From the NCBI GenBank assembly GCA_934276635.1, contig CAKQTH010000002.1, forward strand, positions 11,822 to 75,821: a stretch of DNA of 64,000 bases, in the 5' to 3' direction. Of this stretch, positions 17,981 to 63,794 are shown in pieces (within the stretch, counting starts at the first letter, position 1; the number at the start of each line of letters is the position of its first letter). Under the pieces are notes generated by a model. The model did no database searches and was not told the DNA's origin. It saw only the letters and a program-made list of their open reading frames with translations. Source of the stretch: an uncultured Alphaproteobacteria bacterium. Its GTDB lineage: Bacteria > Pseudomonadota > Alphaproteobacteria > RF32 > CAG-239. A program made the translations under genes and the position numbers.

Positions 17981-18458
17981 CAAAACAGAGGCGAAAACCT
18001 CCGTCTTTTCTGCGGTGCATAAATCAGACAAACGACATCAGCATATATATAATAAAGAATCTGCCCCATTTATTCAGCCTTCCGAATTTTTTAATTTTTG
18101 CGGTCAGCGGCGTTAAGAAATAAGCAACAAAAAAAAAGCACTTTGGACACAAACAAATCTTCTCTGTAATCTCTTTCATTATCTATCCAGCCGATAATTG
18201 TTAATATCAATGGTGGTACAACCATTATCAACAAGAGAAACAGCATTGCTTCTTTTATAAAATATCCAGTTTTTTTTCAAATCCATTTTTTCTCCTTAAT
18301 ATTATCTTAGCCAAATAAGAATAAAAATCAATGAATCATTCTCCCTCAGCTCAAGGATTTTATTCATATTTTTCACTCAGAATCAGATGGTTTGGTAAAT
18401 TTTGTCGAAAAATCAATGTTTTGTCGAATAAAAATCTTAACGAAAGGTTAAAAAATCG

Positions 18459-18489
18459 TTGACAACACCTCACCGGGGGGGGGTAGAAT
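18459..18489 (+). promoter_or_regulatory. sigma-70-like promoter with a G9 homopolymer in the -35/-10 spacer (candidate phase-variable promoter)
   Basis: TTGACA (18459-18464), a 19-nt spacer that contains GGGGGGGGG (18475-18483), then TAGAAT (18484-18489). This lies 95 nt upstream of the autotransporter ATG. Confidence 0.55.
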
Positions 18490-18584
18490 ATATGTGTAAA
18501 TGGAATCGTAAAGGCCGTGTAACACATTGTTTTTATGCATTTATGATTCGGGGATAATTTTTAAGAGATTACAGGGGACGGAAT

Positions 18585-21500
18585 ATGAAAAATTATGTTT
18601 TCAAGAGAATTCTGTTAACAACAAGCGTGGCTTGCGGCGCGCTTTTTGTCTCGGGGAATGTAAATGCGGCAACCGTGTCTACATGGGAAGAATTTAAGGC
18701 GGCGATTGCGGCCGGAGAAAGCGAGATTGTGCTTGCGGACAACCTGACGGCGACCGATATAATCACAATTACAAGTCCGCTCAGCATCAAGAGCGCGGAC
18801 GGACAGGTTTATAAAATTTCTGCGGCTGACGGGCTGAAATTTTCCGACTCCTTTATCAAATATACCGGCACATCGTCTTCTCCGCTGCTTAATTTGAGCA
18901 ATGTGCAGATTTCAAACATTTACCGTTTTAACAACACCAACGCCGGAACATACGCTGGCGGCGTAATCAACAACTCGGGCAAAATCGGCACGATTGACGG
19001 TGTGTTTTCTGACAACAAAATGGAATATAATCTAGACAGCGGTGGGCATACCAGAGTGTACGGCGGTATAATCTATAACAGTTCGTCCGGCTCCATAGAT
19101 AAAATCGGCGGCACATTTTCCAGCAACGACTTTGTCAGCCGCGTTCCGTGGAGCAGCCTCAACTCCTGGGGCGGCATAATCAGCAACCAGGGCACTATCA
19201 ACGAAATTGATGCAAACTTTATCGGAAACACTATGTCGACAGAAGATTATAGAGATAACTATACTTATGGCGGAATAATACAATCGAGCGGAAAAATCGG
19301 CACAATCAGAGGATTGTTCAAAGACAATATATTAAAATATTACAACTACACCAGCTACTGGAATGAGCAAAGGGGTAGTTTGATGTATATACAAAACGGG
19401 GTAGACAATATCTATGCCGACTTTATAAACAACTCCCTATATAATGAAGCCAATGACACTCTGACACGTGTCCACGCATCTTTAAACTTAGGTTTTATAA
19501 CCTTGCAATATAACAATATAAACGATTTTGTATCGTCTTTTGCTGAAAATAAGATGAATGTAACACTTACCGGAAACGGTAACGGATTTGTCAGAATAAA
19601 TGATATATACCAGACAACCGCAAAAAATATTGTGTTTGATATGCATAACAACAAAGTTGATGCAACAGCTGAAGGTTATATATATTATGAAAGCTTCAAC
19701 ATGGAAGGGGATTCAACTGATGTTACATTTAATAATTCCAAATTCTATGAAAATGAAACAACATTAGAATCCACCACAAAAAACATTTATGCCTCCGGCT
19801 TAATGACTGTATCCAGCAGCGGTGCGAAAGCAACATTTAACAATGTGCTGTTTAAGGACAATATTACTACCGCAGTCGGGAATTCGACCATCAGCGGCGG
19901 CGGTATCAAAAACAACGGTACATTAAACATTAACACCGCGCTTTTTGAAAACAACCTGATTAATTCCACAAATGCGGCAAACGGCGGAGCAATTTCCAAC
20001 GCAAAAACCGCCTCGATTATTGCTGATTTTGTCGGCAACAAAGCTTTCGCCGGAACGGATACTTCCACCGACACCAACGCCGTGGCCAGAGGTGGCGCGG
20101 TTTACAACTCCGCAGCCGGAACAATCGAAAAGCTCAGCGGCGTATTCTCTGACAACAAAGCGTATGCGATCGGCAAAACAAAATCTTCCGCTCTCGGCGG
20201 CGCGGTCTATAACAAAGGAAACCTCACTCTTTCTAATATCGTGATGGCCGACAACAACGCGGTTGCCGAAACCGGAACAGCCGACGAAACAAACAAGCCG
20301 GAAGCGCTCGGCGGTGCGGTTTATAACCTCGGAGATTTGCATATCAACGGTTCTGACGGCTTTGAAAACATTATCTCCGGCAACAAGGCGACTACCAAAA
20401 TCGGCGAGACCGAAAACACCGTGCAAAACGGAATATACACCGCCGCGGCCGACAAGAATGTATTTGTTAATATGACGACCGATTCAAAACTGTTCGTCTA
20501 TGACACCATCGACGGCGTTGAGGCCGGATACAACCTAAAATTTGACGGCGATGAAACCGGCCAGGCGTTTATTTATAACAATATTATCAACGCCAACATC
20601 TTTTTGGACAATATGTATCTGAACATTGCTCAAGAAGAATATCTCGACAATGCGAAAACTCTGACGCTTTCTTCCGGTCATTTGGATTTGATGAACGGAA
20701 AAGTCGGAACAATCCGCCCGGCAATGACTTTGACCGGCAATGTTCTGCTCTCCGTTGATGTCGATTTGTCCAACAAAATTATGGACCGCTTTGCCGATGG
20801 CGCAACCGCTACGGCCGGAAAACTCACAATCTCGCAGATAAATCTTCTTTCTGACGCTCTGCAAGATGTTGTGTATGTTCCGTTTGCCGAAGACAGCTGG
20901 CGCGACAAAGTTGATACCACCGTTACCGACGCCGTATATTCGAGCATCTATAAATATACGGTTTCGTACGAGGCTGACGGCGACGAAAACGGCGAAAATC
21001 GCGGCTCGTTCAAATTTGTCCGCACTTCGGTCATAAACCCGAATATTGAGGCGTCTTCAATCGCGGGAATCATCAACGGGGCAATGACGCAAGGCTTGAT
21101 TTATCAAAAAGCCCTGCAAGGCACCGATAACGCCGCACTCATCGGCCTCGGTATGTCTTCCGGCGATGAAAAGAGCGAATACGCTATCGGACAAATGTGG
21201 ATAAGACCGTTCTTGAGCAAAGAAAATGTTGATCTCAAATATTCCAACACCGTCCGTGCACAGGCTCGTGGTATGGTCTTTGGTATCGACAGCAACGACA
21301 TTCATCTTGACAACGGCGGAGAGCTCACAATCAGCCTCTATGGCGCAGTCGTCGACTCCGACCAAAAGTTTGAGCAAAACAAAGTTAAACAAACCGGAGG
21401 CAACCTCGGCGGATCTATCGTGGCAACATACGGCGACTTCTTTGCCGCAGTCACCGCCAATATCGGTATGAGCGATAATGAAGTCAACACCGTCACCGGC

Positions 21501-21974
21501 AAAGACAACTTTAATATCTATCTCGGCGGTGCGGCGTTCAAAACCGGCTACAATATCAGCCTTAACGAAAGCAAAGACCTGGTTATTCAGCCGAACTTCC
21601 TGACTTCGTACACCGCGCTGAAAACCGAAAATTATCACACTTCGGCCGGCGTTCATGTAAAGTCTGATATGCTGCATGTGGTAGAAATCGCTCCGGGCTT
21701 TAAGCTCATCAAAGAATACGACCACGGATTTAAGGCATATGCTACCATGACGGCGGTTTGGAATGTTATAATCGACGGCGAGGTTCGCGCAAACAATGTG
21801 GTTCTGCCTGACTTGAGCGTCAAACCATACATTGAATACGGATTCGGTTTTGAAAAAGACTGGAGCCAAGAAGAATGGAACCCGGTTGACCTCACAACAT
21901 TCGCGCAAATCGTCAGACGCGACGGCGGACGCGAAGGTTGGGCAGGAACCGCGGGTATCAAATGGAGCTTCTGA
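18585..21974 (+). CDS. autotransporter adhesin with Pmp-type (GGA[IV]xN / FxxN) passenger repeats and a C-terminal beta-barrel
   Basis: Signal peptide MKNYVFKRILLTTSVACGALFVSGNVNA. Repeated GGAIYN/GGAVYN...F.GN motifs. The C-terminus ends in GIKWSF (aromatic terminal residue). 1129 aa. Confidence 0.8.
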   Translation: MKNYVFKRILLTTSVACGALFVSGNVNAATVSTWEEFKAAIAAGESEIVLADNLTATDIITITSPLSIKSADGQVYKISAADGLKFSDSFIKYTGTSSSPLLNLSNVQISNIYRFNNTNAGTYAGGVINNSGKIGTIDGVFSDNKMEYNLDSGGHTRVYGGIIYNSSSGSIDKIGGTFSSNDFVSRVPWSSLNSWGGIISNQGTINEIDANFIGNTMSTEDYRDNYTYGGIIQSSGKIGTIRGLFKDNILKYYNYTSYWNEQRGSLMYIQNGVDNIYADFINNSLYNEANDTLTRVHASLNLGFITLQYNNINDFVSSFAENKMNVTLTGNGNGFVRINDIYQTTAKNIVFDMHNNKVDATAEGYIYYESFNMEGDSTDVTFNNSKFYENETTLESTTKNIYASGLMTVSSSGAKATFNNVLFKDNITTAVGNSTISGGGIKNNGTLNINTALFENNLINSTNAANGGAISNAKTASIIADFVGNKAFAGTDTSTDTNAVARGGAVYNSAAGTIEKLSGVFSDNKAYAIGKTKSSALGGAVYNKGNLTLSNIVMADNNAVAETGTADETNKPEALGGAVYNLGDLHINGSDGFENIISGNKATTKIGETENTVQNGIYTAAADKNVFVNMTTDSKLFVYDTIDGVEAGYNLKFDGDETGQAFIYNNIINANIFLDNMYLNIAQEEYLDNAKTLTLSSGHLDLMNGKVGTIRPAMTLTGNVLLSVDVDLSNKIMDRFADGATATAGKLTISQINLLSDALQDVVYVPFAEDSWRDKVDTTVTDAVYSSIYKYTVSYEADGDENGENRGSFKFVRTSVINPNIEASSIAGIINGAMTQGLIYQKALQGTDNAALIGLGMSSGDEKSEYAIGQMWIRPFLSKENVDLKYSNTVRAQARGMVFGIDSNDIHLDNGGELTISLYGAVVDSDQKFEQNKVKQTGGNLGGSIVATYGDFFAAVTANIGMSDNEVNTVTGKDNFNIYLGGAAFKTGYNISLNESKDLVIQPNFLTSYTALKTENYHTSAGVHVKSDMLHVVEIAPGFKLIKEYDHGFKAYATMTAVWNVIIDGEVRANNVVLPDLSVKPYIEYGFGFEKDWSQEEWNPVDLTTFAQIVRRDGGREGWAGTAGIKWSF

Positions 21975-25725: not shown

Positions 25726-27015
25726 ATGAATCAGGAAAATCTCGAAGTTGTGAAAAAGTTGATGCGATTTGCCAAAGGAAAGCTCGTAAGCGCCTACAAT
25801 TCCGAGCTTTTTCAAAACTTTAAGGCCGAATACACCGGCGCAAAACTGGTTGAAAAGCTGCGTGCCGGAAAGGTCGGCTTTGTCAATGGCGTAAATCAGG
25901 CAAAAGTGGTTTTCCGTCCTCGCTATAAATTGGCTAAAGCGCGTGCTATTGCGGCCGGTCAGCGATTTTTGAGCTTTACGAAAGAAAATCTGCAAGCAGC
26001 GAAAAATTCTGATTTATACAAAGATTTTCAAAATTCAAAATTGGTGCAAAATTGCCGAAAATACGGGCGAAAAGCGGTGCTTGCGGCGTCGATTTCGGGC
26101 GTGTTGCTCGGCGGCGGATATATCTTTAAGAAAAATTCCAACAACAAGAGAACTGCCGAATACAGGCAGGAGATTGTCACTCATACCCCGACCGTGGACG
26201 AGGCCATCAAACATAACGAAAATCTGCTGTTTGCCACCATCGTTCATTCCGAAAATTTCAGCAATGAGCCATACCGCGATTCCGCCGGAGTTCCGACCAT
26301 CGGCTATGGCACGACCGTTTATCCGAACGGAAAAAGAGTTACGATGGGCGACAATCCGATAAGCCGCACTCTTTCGCCGGAAATGGTGCAAAAAAACAAC
26401 GGCAGCTACAAAGACGCGATGTATGACAAGGCGCAGGGATATGTTATATCTCACCTTGAAAAAGAGGTGTATCCGGCGCTCAGAGAGATTAAAGACTTCA
26501 ACAAGCTCACGCAAAATCAACAGGTTGCGCTCGGGCTGTTTGTTTATAATATCGGAAAGTCGGGCTTTGAAAACTCGTCTGTTTTGCAAGAGCTTAATGC
26601 CGGAAATACCTTAGCCGCGTTTGATAACATACTCAAATATAACAAAGTGAAAGGCAAACGGGGAGGATTGGTATTTTCGAGAGGCCTGCAAAAGCGCCGC
26701 GCGTACGAATATATGATTGCGCAGGGCAATGTTTCTTTGGCCGATGTGATAAAAATGCCGATCGGAAGCTTGTATGTCGACTCAGCTTATGAGCTTATGT
26801 ATGGTGGGAAAACAGCGAAAGACTTTGCCGGCGAAAACATTGTAAAGCCGGATTCTTCCAAAGCGGCAGGATATGTTACCGCGCTGATGAGCGCGGCCGG
26901 CAATAAGGTTGAGCATTGCGTCACCAGCGCCTGCCGGCAGGATATCAAAGCAAAAACGGCGTCCGATGCCCAAAAAATTGAAGTTGCGATGCTTGACCGC
27001 GGCAACAGGCGTTGA
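25726..27015 (+). CDS. inner-membrane-anchored glycoside hydrolase family 24 (phage-type lysozyme) protein
   Basis: About 125 aa cytoplasmic N-domain, one TM (AVLAASISGVLLGGGYIF), then a GH24 signature: HSENFSNEPYRDSAGVPTIGYGTT ... LTQNQQVALGLFVYNIGKSGF ... KRGGLVFSRGLQKRRAYEYM. Confidence 0.65.
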   Translation: MNQENLEVVKKLMRFAKGKLVSAYNSELFQNFKAEYTGAKLVEKLRAGKVGFVNGVNQAKVVFRPRYKLAKARAIAAGQRFLSFTKENLQAAKNSDLYKDFQNSKLVQNCRKYGRKAVLAASISGVLLGGGYIFKKNSNNKRTAEYRQEIVTHTPTVDEAIKHNENLLFATIVHSENFSNEPYRDSAGVPTIGYGTTVYPNGKRVTMGDNPISRTLSPEMVQKNNGSYKDAMYDKAQGYVISHLEKEVYPALREIKDFNKLTQNQQVALGLFVYNIGKSGFENSSVLQELNAGNTLAAFDNILKYNKVKGKRGGLVFSRGLQKRRAYEYMIAQGNVSLADVIKMPIGSLYVDSAYELMYGGKTAKDFAGENIVKPDSSKAAGYVTALMSAAGNKVEHCVTSACRQDIKAKTASDAQKIEVAMLDRGNRR

Positions 27016-27063
27016 CATTTCGACCTATTGATACTTATATAATCAGCAGAAAGGGATTTTGTG

Positions 27064-27456: not shown

Positions 27457-30400
27457 CTACCATTCCTGAGTATATTTCAACTTAGGATTGTTCAAACGCT
27501 TTATATAATTAGGGTTACTTCTTTCTACTCCTTGTTCTACTGTTCTAAGGCTTGAATATTGATTATATTCTGTATCAACCATATTTTCATTGAAATAACT
27601 ATTACTGTTGTTTGTCAAACCATTTCTATCGAAATAACAATATACAGTCGCATAACCTTCTATACTCCATTTATCAACCGGGAACAAATTCCAATATATT
27701 TTGTTATCTCCTTGTCCAAGCTGCGGTGCTTCTGATCCACCCATTCCCGGTGTTTTGCTTGAATCAAACAAGTGGCTCCACAACACTGACGGATAGATAA
27801 ATCCCATATAGGTATTCCAACCTACAAATTGTCCGCCTGTTGAATATTCATTTCCTTTGTTATTATTTTCTCCTACATTTCCTCCCAAATTAAGCTTAAT
27901 TGCCGACTTCAACCATGTATTTTGTTGGAATATTCTCGGAATTGTTATAGAACCTCCTCCTGCCGGAATCTCTTTTATATCACCTTTTATCAATCCTTTA
28001 CTGGTCATATCATAAATCTTTTTATCTGGAGATTTGGCACTAGTGTTTCCATACATTGGTGTCGATTCGTTCAAATATAATCTATTACCTGCATCTGCAC
28101 TGCTATCTTCTACCAGAGTACCGATTTGAGCCATACGCCAGCCGGCAGGAGTCAAAGTAATAACTTTTGCATACCCCGGAGGACACTGCGGCGCCGGGAC
28201 AACTCCTAAAAATGCTGATGCAAATATAGCATTTACTTCCTTCACTGAATTGTTCATACTAGTTATGTCTTTTTCTTTAGGTGTCGTTCCCTCACCATAG
28301 CTGTTATCCGTAACATAAATACCTTTATTAATAAAGTCAGGCAAAATATCGCTCAAACGAGCTCCACCGCGGGAGGTCAGCTTGATATCGTGCATAACCG
28401 AAGTATATGCCGGATCTACCATATAGTGGTCATAACGCACACCATGACCTATTGTTTTGTCTTTATATACTTCATTTGGATTTCTCTCATAAGATACTCC
28501 GTTTTTTACATCCTGGACATTATCTACAACAAACCTGTCCGCTTTAACATACCCCGTCCCCGCATCAGCAGCATTTTTACCGGTTGAATCAGCAGCATTT
28601 TTACCGGTTGAAGAGGCTATCTTGTCTAAATCATCAAATTGCTGTACATCTATTGAACCTCTGCGGATATATACACCAGCTTTGATAGTATTATTTGCTC
28701 TATCTTGTACATTAAAATTATCATCACCTTTTGAAACATCATCTGAGCCGCTTACCGCCAACACATTATTTTGCAAGACAACTTTTCCGCCATATGCATT
28801 ATCACCAGACTTATGATGAACAGTTTGAATATGTATATATTGATCACCCTGCAATTGAATATTATTCGATGCATTAAATTGCAAGAAACTACCTTTATCA
28901 TATTTAGGAGTGACATCTATGCCATTATTTGCTTCTACACTATCTCTAGACAATGTTATTGTTCCATCTACTCCCTTTGTTGAATCTGACGGGGAAACAT
29001 TCATTACAATATCTCCACCCTTTACCGTTGTATTAACATTACCAGCAGTAACTTTGTTTTCTATGTTAGCATCAGAAACAGTCATAGCTATACCGCCGAC
29101 ATTCTTAACCGCTTTGCCATCGTCTTTATAAATTCGACCTATATCCAATTGAGAGAGTGGTTTTTTTACTGTTGATCCTGACGATGATTGTCCTAACGTC
29201 CTCATTTGAATAGTACCTTGTAGCAAGTCGCCTACACTTTCTTGGTCATTGCCATAACCTTTTATTTGTCTGGCTTCTTCAAGCTTTCCGCTGGACGCCA
29301 CATTTATATATGCATACTGCGCCGGTAATTCTCCCGCTTTACTTTCACCTTTTCTTTTATACCCGATTTTAACACCGTTTTTATCTACATCTAAATTCCA
29401 GGTTTCTTGGCTATTGTCTAGATCGTTTCTGCCTGCGCGCAATGATTTTGTATCAAAATTATCAGATTTCAAATATCCTGTTTCCAGCTGTGTCGCAATT
29501 GTTCTACCTGATAAAATATTTGCATTTTTTGCATTATTTGCGGCAACTATATATGATGTATAAGCAGCATTGCCATCACTATCTTTTTTTCCTATACGAG
29601 CATATTTGTCTTTAAATCCGGACCCATCGTATGTGGCTTTATTATCTTGTGTACCGACATAATTTTTTGGATTCATTGCCACAAGTTGATTTTTAATAGT
29701 CGTTCCATCTTCTTTGATACTAACCTTAGCATCGTCACTATTGCCAAAGAAACGAACAGCTCTTGCATCACCAGATTCTTCTGCGCCTATATTTGCAGAA
29801 ATTAAATTATTAGCATATGTCAAAGTATTACTATTTACGGCAAACTTATCCTTACTATCGCCGGTTCTGCTGAATGTCATGCCACTGTTATCAACAACCA
29901 GTCCGGCTCCGGCAACCGCTGTAGTATTTCCTTCTCCTGTAGTAGAGGTATACGGATTGTATTTAAATTCTGTTTCATCGACACTCAGTTTTTTCCGAGC
30001 GGCTTCCAATGATCCGCCTAACCAAGTATTTTTAACAGCGCCTTTACTGCTGACATACAAAGCATAACCTTCTGCATCGGCAGTTATATCATCATCTTGA
30101 TTATCTTTTTTATTTCCATCTCTTCCTTCTTGATGGCCAATCAAAAGTTGGCGAACGCCTTCGATGCTTTTTGCGCCATCATCACCCCACATATACAAGT
30201 TTGTCTGCATGGTGTTGTTTTCAACATCATCTTCAACGCGATATAAAAACTTGCTGGTATCAATCTGTGCCGACGCCCCGACCGCATTCTGCGATGCCAC
30301 AACAACCGAGTTATCAGAAATACCATTTAGCTCTATATCTGCAGGATCTGTCTGCCATGTACCCTGAACGCCGAGCACTTCACCGTTGTCAACAATTGCT

Positions 30401-30864
30401 CCGTTCCCGCCAATCATTGTCGCAATTCTTGATGTGCGTTGCGCCGTAATCTTGTCATCTGTAACATTTGCGCCAACATATCCGGTAATAACAGGGGCTT
30501 TCGGGTTATCCGTTTCTTTTACGACATAAGAAAATTTATATTCTTCCCCAAGCGGGCCATAAACTTTTTCCCCTTCAACAGCTCCTTCAGGCAAATATTT
30601 TGCCAATTTGTCCGCCGTTAAAGTGTATTTGCCATCATGTCCATCGCCTTTCAAGGTATCATAATTATCGCTGATATAGGCATCAAGCGCGGAGCTGAGC
30701 ATTCTCATATGGCTCGCCGCGTTGATATCTTGCAGCTCGGTCATTCTTTCCGCTGATTTTTTATAAACAACAGGAGTAACCAGCGAAATTAACCCCAACA
30801 TTGCTATCGCCTCAATCATCAAGCTACCAGCCTGATTTATCTTTTTCATATCAAAGTTTTTCAT
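27457..30864 (-). CDS. giant (1135 aa) protein with a type IV prepilin-type N-terminal cleavage/methylation signal; modular pilin-like adhesin candidate
   Basis: N-terminus MKNFDMKKINQAG|SLMIEAIAMLGLISLVTPVVY: a basic leader, Gly at -1, Glu at +5, a hydrophobic stretch of about 20 aa, then an amphipathic helix, as in pilin alpha-1. The rest is G/N/D/K/T-rich predicted beta-rich sequence containing a perfect 8-aa tandem repeat. Confidence 0.6.
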   Translation of the reverse strand: MKNFDMKKINQAGSLMIEAIAMLGLISLVTPVVYKKSAERMTELQDINAASHMRMLSSALDAYISDNYDTLKGDGHDGKYTLTADKLAKYLPEGAVEGEKVYGPLGEEYKFSYVVKETDNPKAPVITGYVGANVTDDKITAQRTSRIATMIGGNGAIVDNGEVLGVQGTWQTDPADIELNGISDNSVVVASQNAVGASAQIDTSKFLYRVEDDVENNTMQTNLYMWGDDGAKSIEGVRQLLIGHQEGRDGNKKDNQDDDITADAEGYALYVSSKGAVKNTWLGGSLEAARKKLSVDETEFKYNPYTSTTGEGNTTAVAGAGLVVDNSGMTFSRTGDSKDKFAVNSNTLTYANNLISANIGAEESGDARAVRFFGNSDDAKVSIKEDGTTIKNQLVAMNPKNYVGTQDNKATYDGSGFKDKYARIGKKDSDGNAAYTSYIVAANNAKNANILSGRTIATQLETGYLKSDNFDTKSLRAGRNDLDNSQETWNLDVDKNGVKIGYKRKGESKAGELPAQYAYINVASSGKLEEARQIKGYGNDQESVGDLLQGTIQMRTLGQSSSGSTVKKPLSQLDIGRIYKDDGKAVKNVGGIAMTVSDANIENKVTAGNVNTTVKGGDIVMNVSPSDSTKGVDGTITLSRDSVEANNGIDVTPKYDKGSFLQFNASNNIQLQGDQYIHIQTVHHKSGDNAYGGKVVLQNNVLAVSGSDDVSKGDDNFNVQDRANNTIKAGVYIRRGSIDVQQFDDLDKIASSTGKNAADSTGKNAADAGTGYVKADRFVVDNVQDVKNGVSYERNPNEVYKDKTIGHGVRYDHYMVDPAYTSVMHDIKLTSRGGARLSDILPDFINKGIYVTDNSYGEGTTPKEKDITSMNNSVKEVNAIFASAFLGVVPAPQCPPGYAKVITLTPAGWRMAQIGTLVEDSSADAGNRLYLNESTPMYGNTSAKSPDKKIYDMTSKGLIKGDIKEIPAGGGSITIPRIFQQNTWLKSAIKLNLGGNVGENNNKGNEYSTGGQFVGWNTYMGFIYPSVLWSHLFDSSKTPGMGGSEAPQLGQGDNKIYWNLFPVDKWSIEGYATVYCYFDRNGLTNNSNSYFNENMVDTEYNQYSSLRTVEQGVERSNPNYIKRLNNPKLKYTQEW
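28564..28611 (-). repeat. perfect 24-bp tandem duplication inside the giant pilin-like CDS (encodes STGKNAAD x2)
   Basis: atcagcagcatttttaccggttga occurs twice back to back, at 28564-28587 and 28588-28611. Confidence 0.9.
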
Positions 30865-34448: not shown

Positions 34449-34944
34449 CTAGAAAGAAATGATAATGGTGTTATCTTTTTCTTCATGAACATCAGCGACG
34501 GCTTCTGCCAGGGCATAAAATGTTCGGTGTCCGGTCGGCATGGTTGTCATTCCGATGGTCGATGAGCCGGAGTCTGAAGTTGAGCCAGACCCGTTGCCGG
34601 TTGAAGAACCCGTACAGGAATTTGAACCTGTATCAGGTTTTGTCTCTTCCCCGCCGCTTGAACTCTGGTTGCCGTTGTTTGAATCAGAACCGCCGTTGTC
34701 AGGGGTCTTACCTAAAGTTGTTCCAGCTTTGCCAGTCCTCAGAAAAAGGATTGAATTTAGCATTTTTAAGAAAAGTTGATAAATCGAGTTCTACATTTTC
34801 TCCGGTATCTTCACCAAAATAAGAAACAGAGTTAATCTTATTGGAGTCTTACCAAGATGATGTCCCTATCAATATAGCCGCGTTCGCGTTGACGCAGATG
34901 GCAAGAGCGGTGGAAAGGGAGAGGAAAAAGGGTTTACTTTTCAT
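34449..34944 (-). pseudogene. fragmented small secreted/lipoprotein-like gene: a signal-peptide ORF (34849-34944), then a stop, an 85-nt gap and a +1-frame Gly/Ser-rich ORF (34449-34763)
   Basis: [22 protein letters not shown] is a signal peptide ending in a stop after 31 codons. The downstream 104-aa ORF is low-complexity G/S/T/N-rich and ends in ...IIISF. A G9 tract lies 39 nt upstream of the ATG. Confidence 0.3.
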
Positions 34945-34982
34945 AATACATATTCCTTTATAAAAATATTTAAAAACATCTA

Positions 34983-34991
34983 CCCCCCCCC
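34983..34991 (-). repeat. G9 homopolymer (C9 on the plus strand) followed by TAGA, upstream of the fragmented lipoprotein-like ORF
   Basis: Read directly from the sequence: the minus strand reads ...ctctcGGGGGGGGGtagatgttttt... Confidence 0.9.
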
Positions 34992-36545: not shown

Positions 36546-37238
36546 TTAATCAGGCAAAAGCATATAACCTTTGCCTCGTACGGTTTGCAAATAGCGCGGA
36601 TTTTTCGAATCTGCCTCAATTTTGCGGCGCAAGCGCGTAATCTGCACATCAATAGACCGCGGGCTTTGATTTCCACCCAAAATTTCCGCCAGCTTTTCGC
36701 GCGAAAAAATCCGGCCGGAAGTCTGTCCCAAAGTACACAAAAGAGCCTGTTCGACTGGCGTGATATGAACAACATTGCCGTCAGAATCCAAAAGCTCTTT
36801 TTTTGACATATTATACGAACATCTGCCCAAACTAATTTTTTCCGACTGCTGCGGTTTTTCACCTTTCGGAGCACGACGCAGAATATTTTTAATGCGCAAA
36901 ATCAGCTCCTTAGGCTCAAACGGTTTCGGAATATAGTCATCAGCGCCGCATTCCAGCCCGCTGATACGATCCGCGGTTTCGCCCATTGCCGTAAGCATAA
37001 TCGCCGGGACATCACTTTCTTTGCGCAGTTTGGTCAAAAACTCTATTCCGCTTTCATTCGGCATCATAACATCGACAATCAGCAAATCAAAGCTGTATTC
37101 CTTGAGCATATCGCGTGCCGACTGGGCATCTTTTGCGCTTGAGGCAAAAAAACCTTCGTCCCGCAAAAATCTTTGCAGGAGCGAGCGCAGCCTTGTATCA
37201 TCATCAACTACAAGAATATGAGCTTTTGAATCCGGCAT
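36546..37238 (-). CDS. OmpR-family response regulator
   Basis: Receiver domain (VVDDD...DLLIVDVMMP) and a winged-helix domain (LTAMGETADRISGLECGADDYIPKPFEPKEL). Confidence 0.9.
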   Translation of the reverse strand: MPDSKAHILVVDDDTRLRSLLQRFLRDEGFFASSAKDAQSARDMLKEYSFDLLIVDVMMPNESGIEFLTKLRKESDVPAIMLTAMGETADRISGLECGADDYIPKPFEPKELILRIKNILRRAPKGEKPQQSEKISLGRCSYNMSKKELLDSDGNVVHITPVEQALLCTLGQTSGRIFSREKLAEILGGNQSPRSIDVQITRLRRKIEADSKNPRYLQTVRGKGYMLLPD

Positions 37239-61733: not shown

Positions 61734-63794
61734 TTAAAATGATTGTCCAAATGTTTTCTTCCCTTTACGATATCTTTGCAGGCCATTCTTCATAAAGTAT
61801 ATCGACCTGATTTTGCATGTTGTTCCGCTGCTATTTTCGTTTACATCAGAAACTTGCCATTTTCCGTTATAGTAATACAGTTTATATCTTGTGTATTCAT
61901 CACCTTTGTTTGTTCCAACGCCCCAATAACAGTTAGTCGTCGTAAACTGGTCTCCTCCGGCTTTCTTCAGTGCTTCATTAATTGACGTAATATTTTCCGC
62001 AATTTTTTCCAGCATCTCTTTGGTCGGCAGAGCATGTAATGCAGTCGCGTTACAATCAGCTATCCTTTGGACAATTGAACATGCCGAATTGTTAATCTTT
62101 GCCTTATAACAGTTCCTATCATAATCTGTTTCTCCGGCACCATTTATATAATTTCCCTTGTTGCCGTTGCATTCCGGATCGTCTTTCAGCGACACCGCGT
62201 GGTCATAATAGCCGAAGCTTCCGCCATTTGTATAAGGACCGTTCAGCTTGACCCCGGCCATATTACCTCCCAAATCAACCTTGGATTGATTTGACGGCCA
62301 ATAGAAAATGAGGCCATTGTCATCAGTATGCGGGGAGTTCGTGCTGGTTCCATACATATAGTACCAAGTAGAAGATGAACCTTTACCCTTTTTTATACAC
62401 CTTACATATCCATAATCACCAGCTGTCTCAATATACCATAGGCCTCTGCTTGTGGTAATCTCCTTTACTCCTCCAATATTTGCTTCATGATAACTGCTAT
62501 TTATTTCTTTGCACTTTTTCGGACGATAGCAAACTGCTCCGTTTTTGTTTTCATCAACACAAATTGCGGCTTTGTGGTTGGGATTTCCGTCATATGAAGA
62601 ATTCTTACAATCGCCTTCCGCCACATAATATTCAGTCGGACAAGTTGCTTTCTCTTTATAACAAGTTTTTGAGGTATCGTTGGTGGCGGTTGTTGTGTCA
62701 CAGGTTTTTCCGCTCGGGCACGAACCAAGTATATATCCGGTCGGACATACCGCTTTTTCCTTCTTATAACAGGTTAATGTTCCCGTATCTTCCGTAACTT
62801 TTACACATACATTTTCCGCATCTCCGCAACTGCTGCTGAAAGTATAATTTGCATTATATCCGCTACATGTCTTAGAACATTTTACACTATATGTTGTATT
62901 TGTATCCGTTTCACAAAGCTTCGGCCTGCCTTTTATATTAAAACATGTATCTTTCGTCCAGCCGTTCAGACATTTATAATCATCATACAAATCTCCGCAC
63001 TGGTTGCCGTCAACCGCAAAATTTCCGGTAAGATTATTCGAAGCATATTTATATCTGGCCGGGCATTTACATGTTCTGCAGGTTAGCTCTTTTTGCTGTG
63101 AATGCGTATATGCTTTATCTTCAAGCAATGGTGCTTTACATTCACCTGCCTGATAACTGTTGCCGGTGTCACAGGTTACTGTTGTATACAGTGTTTCTCC
63201 CGCATTATCGCCGTATTTATATGTGCATGCTCCGGTATAAGTAAATCCCGGTGTTTCCTTTTTGTATTTATATGTGCTGTCGCAATCACAATCTTTATAC
63301 AAAACCTTATTTGCATTATTTGCATTTGCCCCATACAGCATCGTGCAGATTCCGCCGTCTGCAACCGGAGTTTGGCCAGCACTGCATACACTTGAATTTG
63401 TCTCTCCGTCTTCTCGTGTTATTTTGGATAAAGTATATTTATAATCACTTTTGCAAGTTGCGCGGTAGAGCTTTTTGCCGTCTATTTTTGTGCATTCTTC
63501 AATATCATACGCTGCCTCGTTTGTCGGTCTTTCTGTCAGCATATAATAGTTCGGATTACAGGTACATTTTACAAATTTCTCACCTTTTGAGACGCAGGTA
63601 TCGTATACGATTTCTTTAACTCCATCGCACGATTTTTCTTTGTATCCCAAACTATTGCAATCTTTTGTTTCGATGCTCGGTTTGTCGCACCCGCCGACGA
63701 TAAAACATACATCAGCGTTACTCGGCTCTACCCCCCCCCACCATGAGGCTACGAAAAGGGTTAGAAACCACACCGTCAGATTTGATTTTCTCAT
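61734..63794 (-). CDS. large secreted Cys/Tyr-rich protein (686 aa) with an in-frame G9 tract in its signal peptide; the C-terminal region resembles DUF1566 (Lcl C-terminal-like)
   Basis: Signal peptide MRKSNLTVWFLTLFVASWWGGVEPSNA|D with an AAAGGGAG ribosome-binding site. At least 50 Cys, many in CxC, CDCD or CKC motifs. The C-terminal LHALPTKEML...YWGVG...YYNGKWQV...CKIRSI is reminiscent of DUF1566. Confidence 0.65.
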   Translation of the reverse strand: MRKSNLTVWFLTLFVASWWGGVEPSNADVCFIVGGCDKPSIETKDCNSLGYKEKSCDGVKEIVYDTCVSKGEKFVKCTCNPNYYMLTERPTNEAAYDIEECTKIDGKKLYRATCKSDYKYTLSKITREDGETNSSVCSAGQTPVADGGICTMLYGANANNANKVLYKDCDCDSTYKYKKETPGFTYTGACTYKYGDNAGETLYTTVTCDTGNSYQAGECKAPLLEDKAYTHSQQKELTCRTCKCPARYKYASNNLTGNFAVDGNQCGDLYDDYKCLNGWTKDTCFNIKGRPKLCETDTNTTYSVKCSKTCSGYNANYTFSSSCGDAENVCVKVTEDTGTLTCYKKEKAVCPTGYILGSCPSGKTCDTTTATNDTSKTCYKEKATCPTEYYVAEGDCKNSSYDGNPNHKAAICVDENKNGAVCYRPKKCKEINSSYHEANIGGVKEITTSRGLWYIETAGDYGYVRCIKKGKGSSSTWYYMYGTSTNSPHTDDNGLIFYWPSNQSKVDLGGNMAGVKLNGPYTNGGSFGYYDHAVSLKDDPECNGNKGNYINGAGETDYDRNCYKAKINNSACSIVQRIADCNATALHALPTKEMLEKIAENITSINEALKKAGGDQFTTTNCYWGVGTNKGDEYTRYKLYYYNGKWQVSDVNENSSGTTCKIRSIYFMKNGLQRYRKGKKTFGQSF
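63731..63739 (-). repeat. G9 homopolymer (C9 on the plus strand) inside codons 18-21 of the Cys-rich protein's signal peptide, followed by TAGA
   Basis: The coding strand reads TGG TGG GGG GGG GTA GAG (W W G G V E). Confidence 0.9.

Follow-up and report, generated by a model that had tools for sequence, protein, structure and literature searches.

An autotransporter gene among housekeeping genes

The window, by which we mean the whole 64-kb stretch of DNA analysed here (43% G+C), belongs to an uncultured gut bacterium. The genes neighbouring the locus of interest are ordinary Gram-negative housekeeping genes (rpoD, dnaG, tpiA, queH, pgpA, adhE, uvrB, uvrC, msbA, and yidC). Human gut metagenomes, Hadza samples among them, contain contigs that match parts of the window exactly, and the best UvrB matches are MAGs of uncultured gut-type Alphaproteobacteria, the highest identity to GTDB species genomes being 80-81% among the matches listed.

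The open reading frame at 18585-21974 on the plus strand encodes a protein of 1129 aa which, from its motifs, its homologues, and an AlphaFold (AF2) model, is a classical (type Va) autotransporter composed of a candidate signal peptide, a passenger with Pmp-like repeats, and a C-terminal β-barrel. A candidate Sec signal peptide, read by eye, covers aa 1-28 (MKNYVFKRILLTTSVACGALFVSGNVNA followed by A). The protein contains eight GG[AIV][ILVM] and 14 FxxN motifs, the family consensus is made of GGAIYN...GDFI.N repeats, and many homologues at ~30% identity carry PF02415 (Chlam_PMP) and PF03797. The protein itself falls below every Pfam and NCBIfam threshold, PF02415 included, and a PDB sequence search with its C-terminus gave no match. 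Since these sequence-profile and PDB searches were empty, its identity was settled through structure prediction and fold search. The AF2 model of the last 329 residues, with a pLDDT of 81, comprises a linker helix and a barrel, in keeping with the 12-stranded translocator of type Va autotransporters, and Foldseek matches this modelled C-terminus to the translocators of AIDA-I, EspP, EstA, BrkA, NalP, and Hbp (E=5e-16 to 8e-13). In addition, residues 864-1129 align with the PF03797 domain of a homologue, P0117 (E=2e-49); alignment and model together place the β-barrel at about aa 864-1129 (nt 21174-21971, plus strand).

An earlier, sequence-only reading of this DNA had described the gene as encoding a Pmp-repeat autotransporter adhesin. 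An autotransporter with Pmp-type repeats is borne out by the motif counts, the P0117 alignment, and the AF2 and Foldseek results. It is the motifs and homologues that suggest the “Pmp-repeat” label, and the protein may function as an adhesin. A search for the autotransporter across GTDB species genomes found no relative.

A putative promoter with a G9 tract in its spacer

Immediately upstream of the autotransporter gene lies a putative sigma-70-type promoter, whose parts as first described (TTGACA, a 19-nt spacer with G9, and TAGAAT) are all exact on re-reading the sequence. The -35 hexamer TTGACA (6/6 match) occupies 18459-18464 on the plus strand. It is followed by a spacer of 19 nt (18465-18483), which consists of the non-G segment ACACCTCACC (18465-18474) and then the G9 homopolymer (18475-18483), and the -10 hexamer TAGAAT (18484-18489) stands directly 3' of the G9 run, all on the plus strand. 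The standard promoter scan missed this site because it permits only spacers of 16-18 nt. Between TAGAAT and the autotransporter ATG at 18585 there are 95 nt; transcription is predicted to start near 18496, and the predicted 5' leader (18490-18584, plus strand), which is highly conserved, includes a Shine-Dalgarno sequence, AGGGGA, at 18573-78. A riboswitch or structured leader was rejected, as the intergenic region matched no family in an Rfam scan and the predicted leader folds no better than shuffled sequences (z = -0.74).

The host sigma factor is probably one that reads such boxes. In the alignment, RpoD and the Caulobacter sigma do not differ in two conserved blocks of 27 and 17 residues, which we take to be regions 2.3-2.4 and 4.2, with which E. 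coli sigma-70 recognises the -10 and -35 boxes; these DNA-recognition blocks presumably also match those of E. coli. Given this conservation, recognition of TTGACA/TATAAT-type boxes by the host sigma is a fair inference.

The region 5' of the -35 box contains further elements. A direct repeat, TTTTGTCGAA[A/T]AA, with copies at 18400-12 and 18419-31 (18400-18431, plus strand) and a period of 19 nt, shows almost no change among lineages A, C, D, and E, and is a candidate binding site for a regulator. It is followed by the palindrome TTAACGAAAGGTTAA (18437-18451, plus strand), which is kept in all lineages with one G>A change in lineage E, and which overlaps an A-rich UP-like AAAAAA (18450-55) just 5' of the -35 box. 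Repeats and palindrome together suggest that an additional, putative regulator acts at this promoter. An OmpR-type regulator is encoded in the window at 36546-37238.

How far such an arrangement could arise by chance was assessed within the window. The spectrum of G/C runs is bimodal, the counts by length being 103 (4 nt), 2 (5 nt), 1 (6 nt), 0 (7 nt and 8 nt), and 3 (9 nt), and all three runs of at least 7 nt are exactly 9 nt long. According to 200 first-order Markov simulations of the window, runs of at least 9 nt are expected 0.05 times per window, with a simulated maximum of 1; against this expectation, the three observed runs indicate that the G9 tract is not due to chance. Moreover, each of the three tracts sits at the 5' end of a secreted-protein gene. 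As for the hexamers, the window contains 10 pairs that match at 11/12 positions or better and are 15-21 nt apart, compared with 2.7 expected, hence one such pair is by itself unremarkable. By our own estimate, the chance that a pair of this quality encloses a given 9-nt tract wholly in its spacer is ~2e-4. A window-wide test for preferred spacing found hexamer pairs enriched at every spacer from 13 to 24 nt, with no clear peak. A perfect TTGACA-N20-TATAAT is present at 27012-27043 (plus strand), and 20-nt spacers occur in 4 of the 10 best hexamer pairs of the window; with such strong long-spacer pairs present, no one optimal spacing can be presumed for this organism.

Tract length varies among gut metagenomes

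The locus was collected from public gut-metagenome assemblies by exact-protein look-up of flanking and allelic proteins. Among ~21 assemblies, some of which (from ENA and Logan) may share samples and perhaps inflate the count of independent observations, the tract is G7 in one, G8 in one, G9 in 16, and G10 in three. The corresponding spacers are 17 nt in two assemblies, 18 nt in three, 19 nt in 15, and 20 nt in one; all tract lengths are those of consensus assemblies and represent between-sample differences only.

Five lineages can be told apart by the sequence flanking the tract. Lineage A, to which the window belongs, has ACACCTCACC and TAGAAT, with G9 in 11 samples (19 nt), G10 in L003 (20 nt), and G7 in L117 (17 nt). 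Lineage B combines ATACCTCAC and TAGAAT with G9 (18 nt), and lineage D combines ATACCTCGTC and TAGAAT with G9 (19 nt) in two samples. The other two have TAAAAT as their -10 box: lineage C, with ACACATCGC, carries G9 (18 nt) or, in L122, G8 (17 nt), and lineage E, with ATACTTTGC, carries G9 (18 nt) or, in two samples, G10 (19 nt).

These differences imply at least four independent changes in tract length, three of which are the sole difference over 5.4-7.2 kb: between L002 and L003 over 7.2 kb, between L117 and five other assemblies over 5.4 kb, and between L123 and L124/L125 over 5.4 kb. Among the underlying data sets, SRR14784664 carries G7, SRR17704072 G8, and ERR7745759 and ERZ28615262, from the same strain, G9 and G10; SRR29834447 and SRR29834421 likewise pair G9 with G10. 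No other site of the locus is as mutable as the G tract. The only other indel between near-identical loci is in an A9 run downstream of queH (18129-18137), which is A8 in L002-L005.

Errors of sequencing or assembly at a homopolymer are a very improbable source of the length differences. Within each sole-difference stretch, none of the 15-22 other homopolymers of at least 6 nt differs, which counts against platform error; in MEGAHIT, SPAdes, and Logan assemblies alike, many samples give an identical G9 tract; one variant (G7) is 2 nt shorter; and the G10 of lineage E is present in two assemblies. What speaks for error is that homopolymers are error-prone, that the data are all consensus assemblies, and that two contigs break at the tract, L005 ending 5 nt before it and L114 starting 2 nt after it. 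These breaks may also be a hint of heterogeneity at the tract, although they are suggestive only. A poly-G read artefact was rejected, since the tract is internal, is 7-10 nt long, and is reproduced by several assemblers.

One further assembly departs from the pattern. L126 (positions 1-45) has the same autotransporter allele as L123-L125 of lineage E and lacks the G-run, reading TTGACA-CTCCCTACCTTTTGTTCGG-TAAAAC. This tract-less spacer is found at the very start of a low-coverage contig, and it may represent a locked variant or else have arisen in assembly at the contig end.

The tract is kept within a species cluster

Comparison of the five flank types, whose autotransporters are 87-100% identical, shows that the -35 box is invariant (5/5), that the -10 box is TA[G/A]AAT with the third position alone varying, and that the G-run is uninterrupted (5/5). 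Most of the adjacent 9-10 non-G spacer positions, by contrast, differ among the flank types, 1-nt indels included. This is the pattern expected for a real promoter, in which the spacer sequence would be free to vary and the homopolymer would be kept by selection.

The same comparison bears on the possibility that the tract is a neutral, slippage-prone homopolymer, that the hexamers match by chance, and that the gene is transcribed from another promoter. We consider this improbable: the run remains unbroken in five lineages while neighbouring spacer bases diverge, the -35 box does not change, and in the window G/C runs of 5-8 nt are nearly absent while three G9 tracts stand at the 5' ends of secreted-protein genes. 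One may argue that a few hexamer pairs of this quality (~2.7 per window) are expected by chance, that the A9 run at 18129 varies too (A8/A9) and has no obvious function, and that there is a weak alternative promoter match, GTAACA-N17-TATGAT, at 18519-47. The GTAACA of this match, however, is GTAGTG in lineage C, and the match was rejected as a real promoter because its -35 box is not conserved.

Beyond these lineages the tract was not found. Relatives at ~80% UvrB identity have no G/C run of at least 8 nt in ~20 kb each, and none of 36 distant autotransporter homologue ORFs (787 kb of metagenome loci) has a tract near its start, which led us to reject the tract as a family-wide autotransporter feature. 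JGI metagenomes, scanned for the exact promoter pattern, likewise gave no match. As far as these comparisons extend, the tract appears specific to the species cluster, with no deep conservation.

Other G9 tracts and variable sites

The second G9 tract (C9 on the plus strand; 34983-34991, minus strand) is located 40 nt upstream of a 31-aa signal-peptide ORF (34849-34943). A separate S/G/T-rich ORF (34449-34763) lies 3' of this short ORF, and the two may be one broken gene. In strain L089 the tract is present as G9+AGAGAGATG in place of G9+TAGATG, and four contigs (L091-L094) end 10-60 nt before it.

The third tract (63731-63739, minus strand) is within a coding sequence, namely the signal-peptide coding part of a gene for a 686-aa Cys-rich secreted protein (61734-63794), where it occupies nt 56-64. 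G9 alone is in frame; at G7, G8, G10, or G11, translation stops after 21-25 residues. Judged from these frames, this is the classic layout of a translational contingency locus. The tract is G9 in L103 and L107 too. The 686-aa protein has no Pfam match, and exact look-up of it found nothing on record. The gene upstream of it differs between assemblies such as L103 and L107 (nrdD/nrdG or yceG), and of the contigs L105, L106, L109, and L110 several start just downstream of it, which suggests a rearranged or variable region.

On the G strand, all three tracts are followed by TAGA (18475-18487, 34979-34991, and 63727-63739), but in lineages C and E the sequence is TAAA, and L089 also departs from TAGA. 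That all three are 9 nt long and have TAGA on their 3' side could reflect a common origin or maintenance of the tracts. Lineage C also has a second tract, C10A9 or C9, ~130 nt 5' of the G tract (L100:1754-1772, L122:762-770). At this position, lineage E (L123) has a minus-strand TTGACA-N17-TATAAA that precedes a divergent 105-aa ORF, and the site in the two lineages may be a second tract-controlled promoter. Elsewhere in the window, the 1135-aa ORF at 27457-30864 (minus strand) begins with a hydrophobic N-terminal segment that is pilin-like by eye and has no Pfam match.

Proposed mechanism

Our preferred reading, to which we give a probability of roughly 0.7, is that a slippage-prone G tract in the spacer of a sigma-70-type promoter causes the autotransporter gene to be transcribed in a phase-variable manner. 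The A-rich upstream stretch, TTGACA, the spacer, and TAGAAT would together form the promoter that drives the surface autotransporter. Replication slippage would add or remove G residues and thereby change the distance and rotation between the two boxes, for which spacings of 17-20 nt are observed, and the level of transcription would be set heritably yet reversibly via spacer length. In the lineage of the window, G7 and G8 alleles (17-18 nt) would give strong transcription, and G9 and G10 alleles (19-20 nt) little or none. The lengths proposed to be ON are assigned by analogy to E. coli, to porA of N. meningitidis, and to tp0126 of T. pallidum, and by the same analogy the allele of the window, G9 with 19 nt, which is modal in gut samples, is predicted to be in a low or off state. 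The loss of 1-2 G that the sequence-only reading had predicted to shorten the spacer does exist in nature, as G7 in L117 and G8 in L122, both with a 17-nt spacer, and its proposal of phase variation draws support from the natural length variation and the conservation of the tract.

The predominance of the 19-nt spacer deserves attention. It is modal (15/21) and is reached in two ways, as 10+G9 or as 9+G10, and being modal across lineages it could be a selected, possibly active, state and not OFF. Its predominance thus fits host selection for low expression, and fits equally well with 19 nt being the preferred active spacing. Populations of T. pallidum are mostly G9 at tprL, with a minority of G7-G11 (PMC7864442). 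A dominant consensus length is therefore no argument against switching.

The modal 19-nt spacer would be odd if the promoter were tuned by spacing alone, and the direct repeat (18400-31) and palindrome (18437-51) conserved directly 5' of the -35 box also point to another possibility, namely that the tract is hypermutable and affects expression by a route other than -35/-10 spacing. It might act through the binding or phasing of a regulator, for which BvgA at the Bordetella fim promoters would be the analogue, or through promoter melting beside the -10 box. Such melting has been proposed for T. pallidum tprL, and poly-G promoters that act otherwise than by spacing do exist (PMC7864442). We nevertheless regard this possibility as unlikely. 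The tract is wholly between two near-consensus, conserved hexamers, so any change in its length must alter their spacing, whereas the putative regulator sites are 5' of the -35 box and stay equally far from it at every tract length.

Comparison with known systems

The primary work on porA of Neisseria meningitidis is reportedly that of van der Ende et al. from 1995. A poly-G tract between the -35 and -10 boxes of porA sets their spacing and hence the level of transcription (PMC7864442). The likeness lies in a poly-G tract between the boxes of a sigma-70-type promoter of a gene for an outer-membrane or surface protein. However, porA encodes a porin in a betaproteobacterial pathogen. In addition, the 17-nt optimum of porA is reached at about G11, whereas 17 nt here needs G7, or G8 with a 9-nt non-G segment. 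Treponema pallidum tp0126, which encodes an OmpW homologue, also has poly-G between the boxes, with the best transcription at 17 nt and with tract lengths that vary within and between isolates (PMC7864442). It shares with our case a poly-G tract in the promoter spacer, length variation, and an uncultivable or uncultured organism. The differences are that T. pallidum is a spirochaete pathogen and that tp0126 was studied by fragment-length analysis and E. coli reporters, while here the variation consists of between-sample assembly differences only.

In Bordetella pertussis, fim2 and fim3 are surface-structure genes with poly-C in their promoters and with conserved upstream repeats as possible activator sites. 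The length of the poly-C tract there determines how far the BvgA site is from the -10 box, and a good -35 box is lacking, whereas the promoter described here has a perfect -35 box and no known activator.

A poly-G tract is also present in a Pmp gene of C. pneumoniae, pmp10. For C. trachomatis pmpG, which encodes a Pmp autotransporter, the poly-G tract is thought to give on/off expression (PMC4488443). The protein is of the same kind as ours, but the Chlamydia pmp tract works by shifting the reading frame from within the coding sequence, whereas ours is in a promoter spacer; the third tract of the window (63731-39) is of the coding type found in Chlamydia pmp genes. In gut Bacteroidales, invertible promoters provide heritable, reversible on/off control of surface molecules in commensals. 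Their switch is site-specific inversion by recombinases, in contrast to slippage here, where there are no inverted repeats and no recombinase. The mechanism itself is known, being of the porA/tp0126 type. The novelty lies in the host, an uncultured alphaproteobacterial commensal of the gut, and in an allelic series that public metagenomes already display. A literature search found no published description of this promoter tract.

Implications for gut commensals

Phase variation by repeat slippage is textbook knowledge for mucosal pathogens such as Neisseria, Haemophilus, Campylobacter, Helicobacter, Bordetella, and Treponema, and the cases known from gut commensals are mainly invertible promoters. 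The present locus would place a porA-type arrangement before an autotransporter gene in a human-gut commensal, with an allelic series already visible in public metagenomes. It can be tested cheaply and without culture through tract-length distributions in existing reads, within hosts and over time. The autotransporter and the two other secreted proteins linked to G9 tracts are flagged as likely host-facing antigens.

More tentatively, and at somewhat less than even odds in our estimation, contingency loci of about G9 may be spread genome-wide, at a density of ~1 per 20 kb in the window, acting both transcriptionally and translationally to control several secreted or surface proteins, in which case the predominance of the 19-nt spacer would mean that the host, through IgA for instance, selects for low expression. 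If true, this would be the first “phasome” of simple-sequence repeats to be reported from a gut commensal, outside the classical pathogens.
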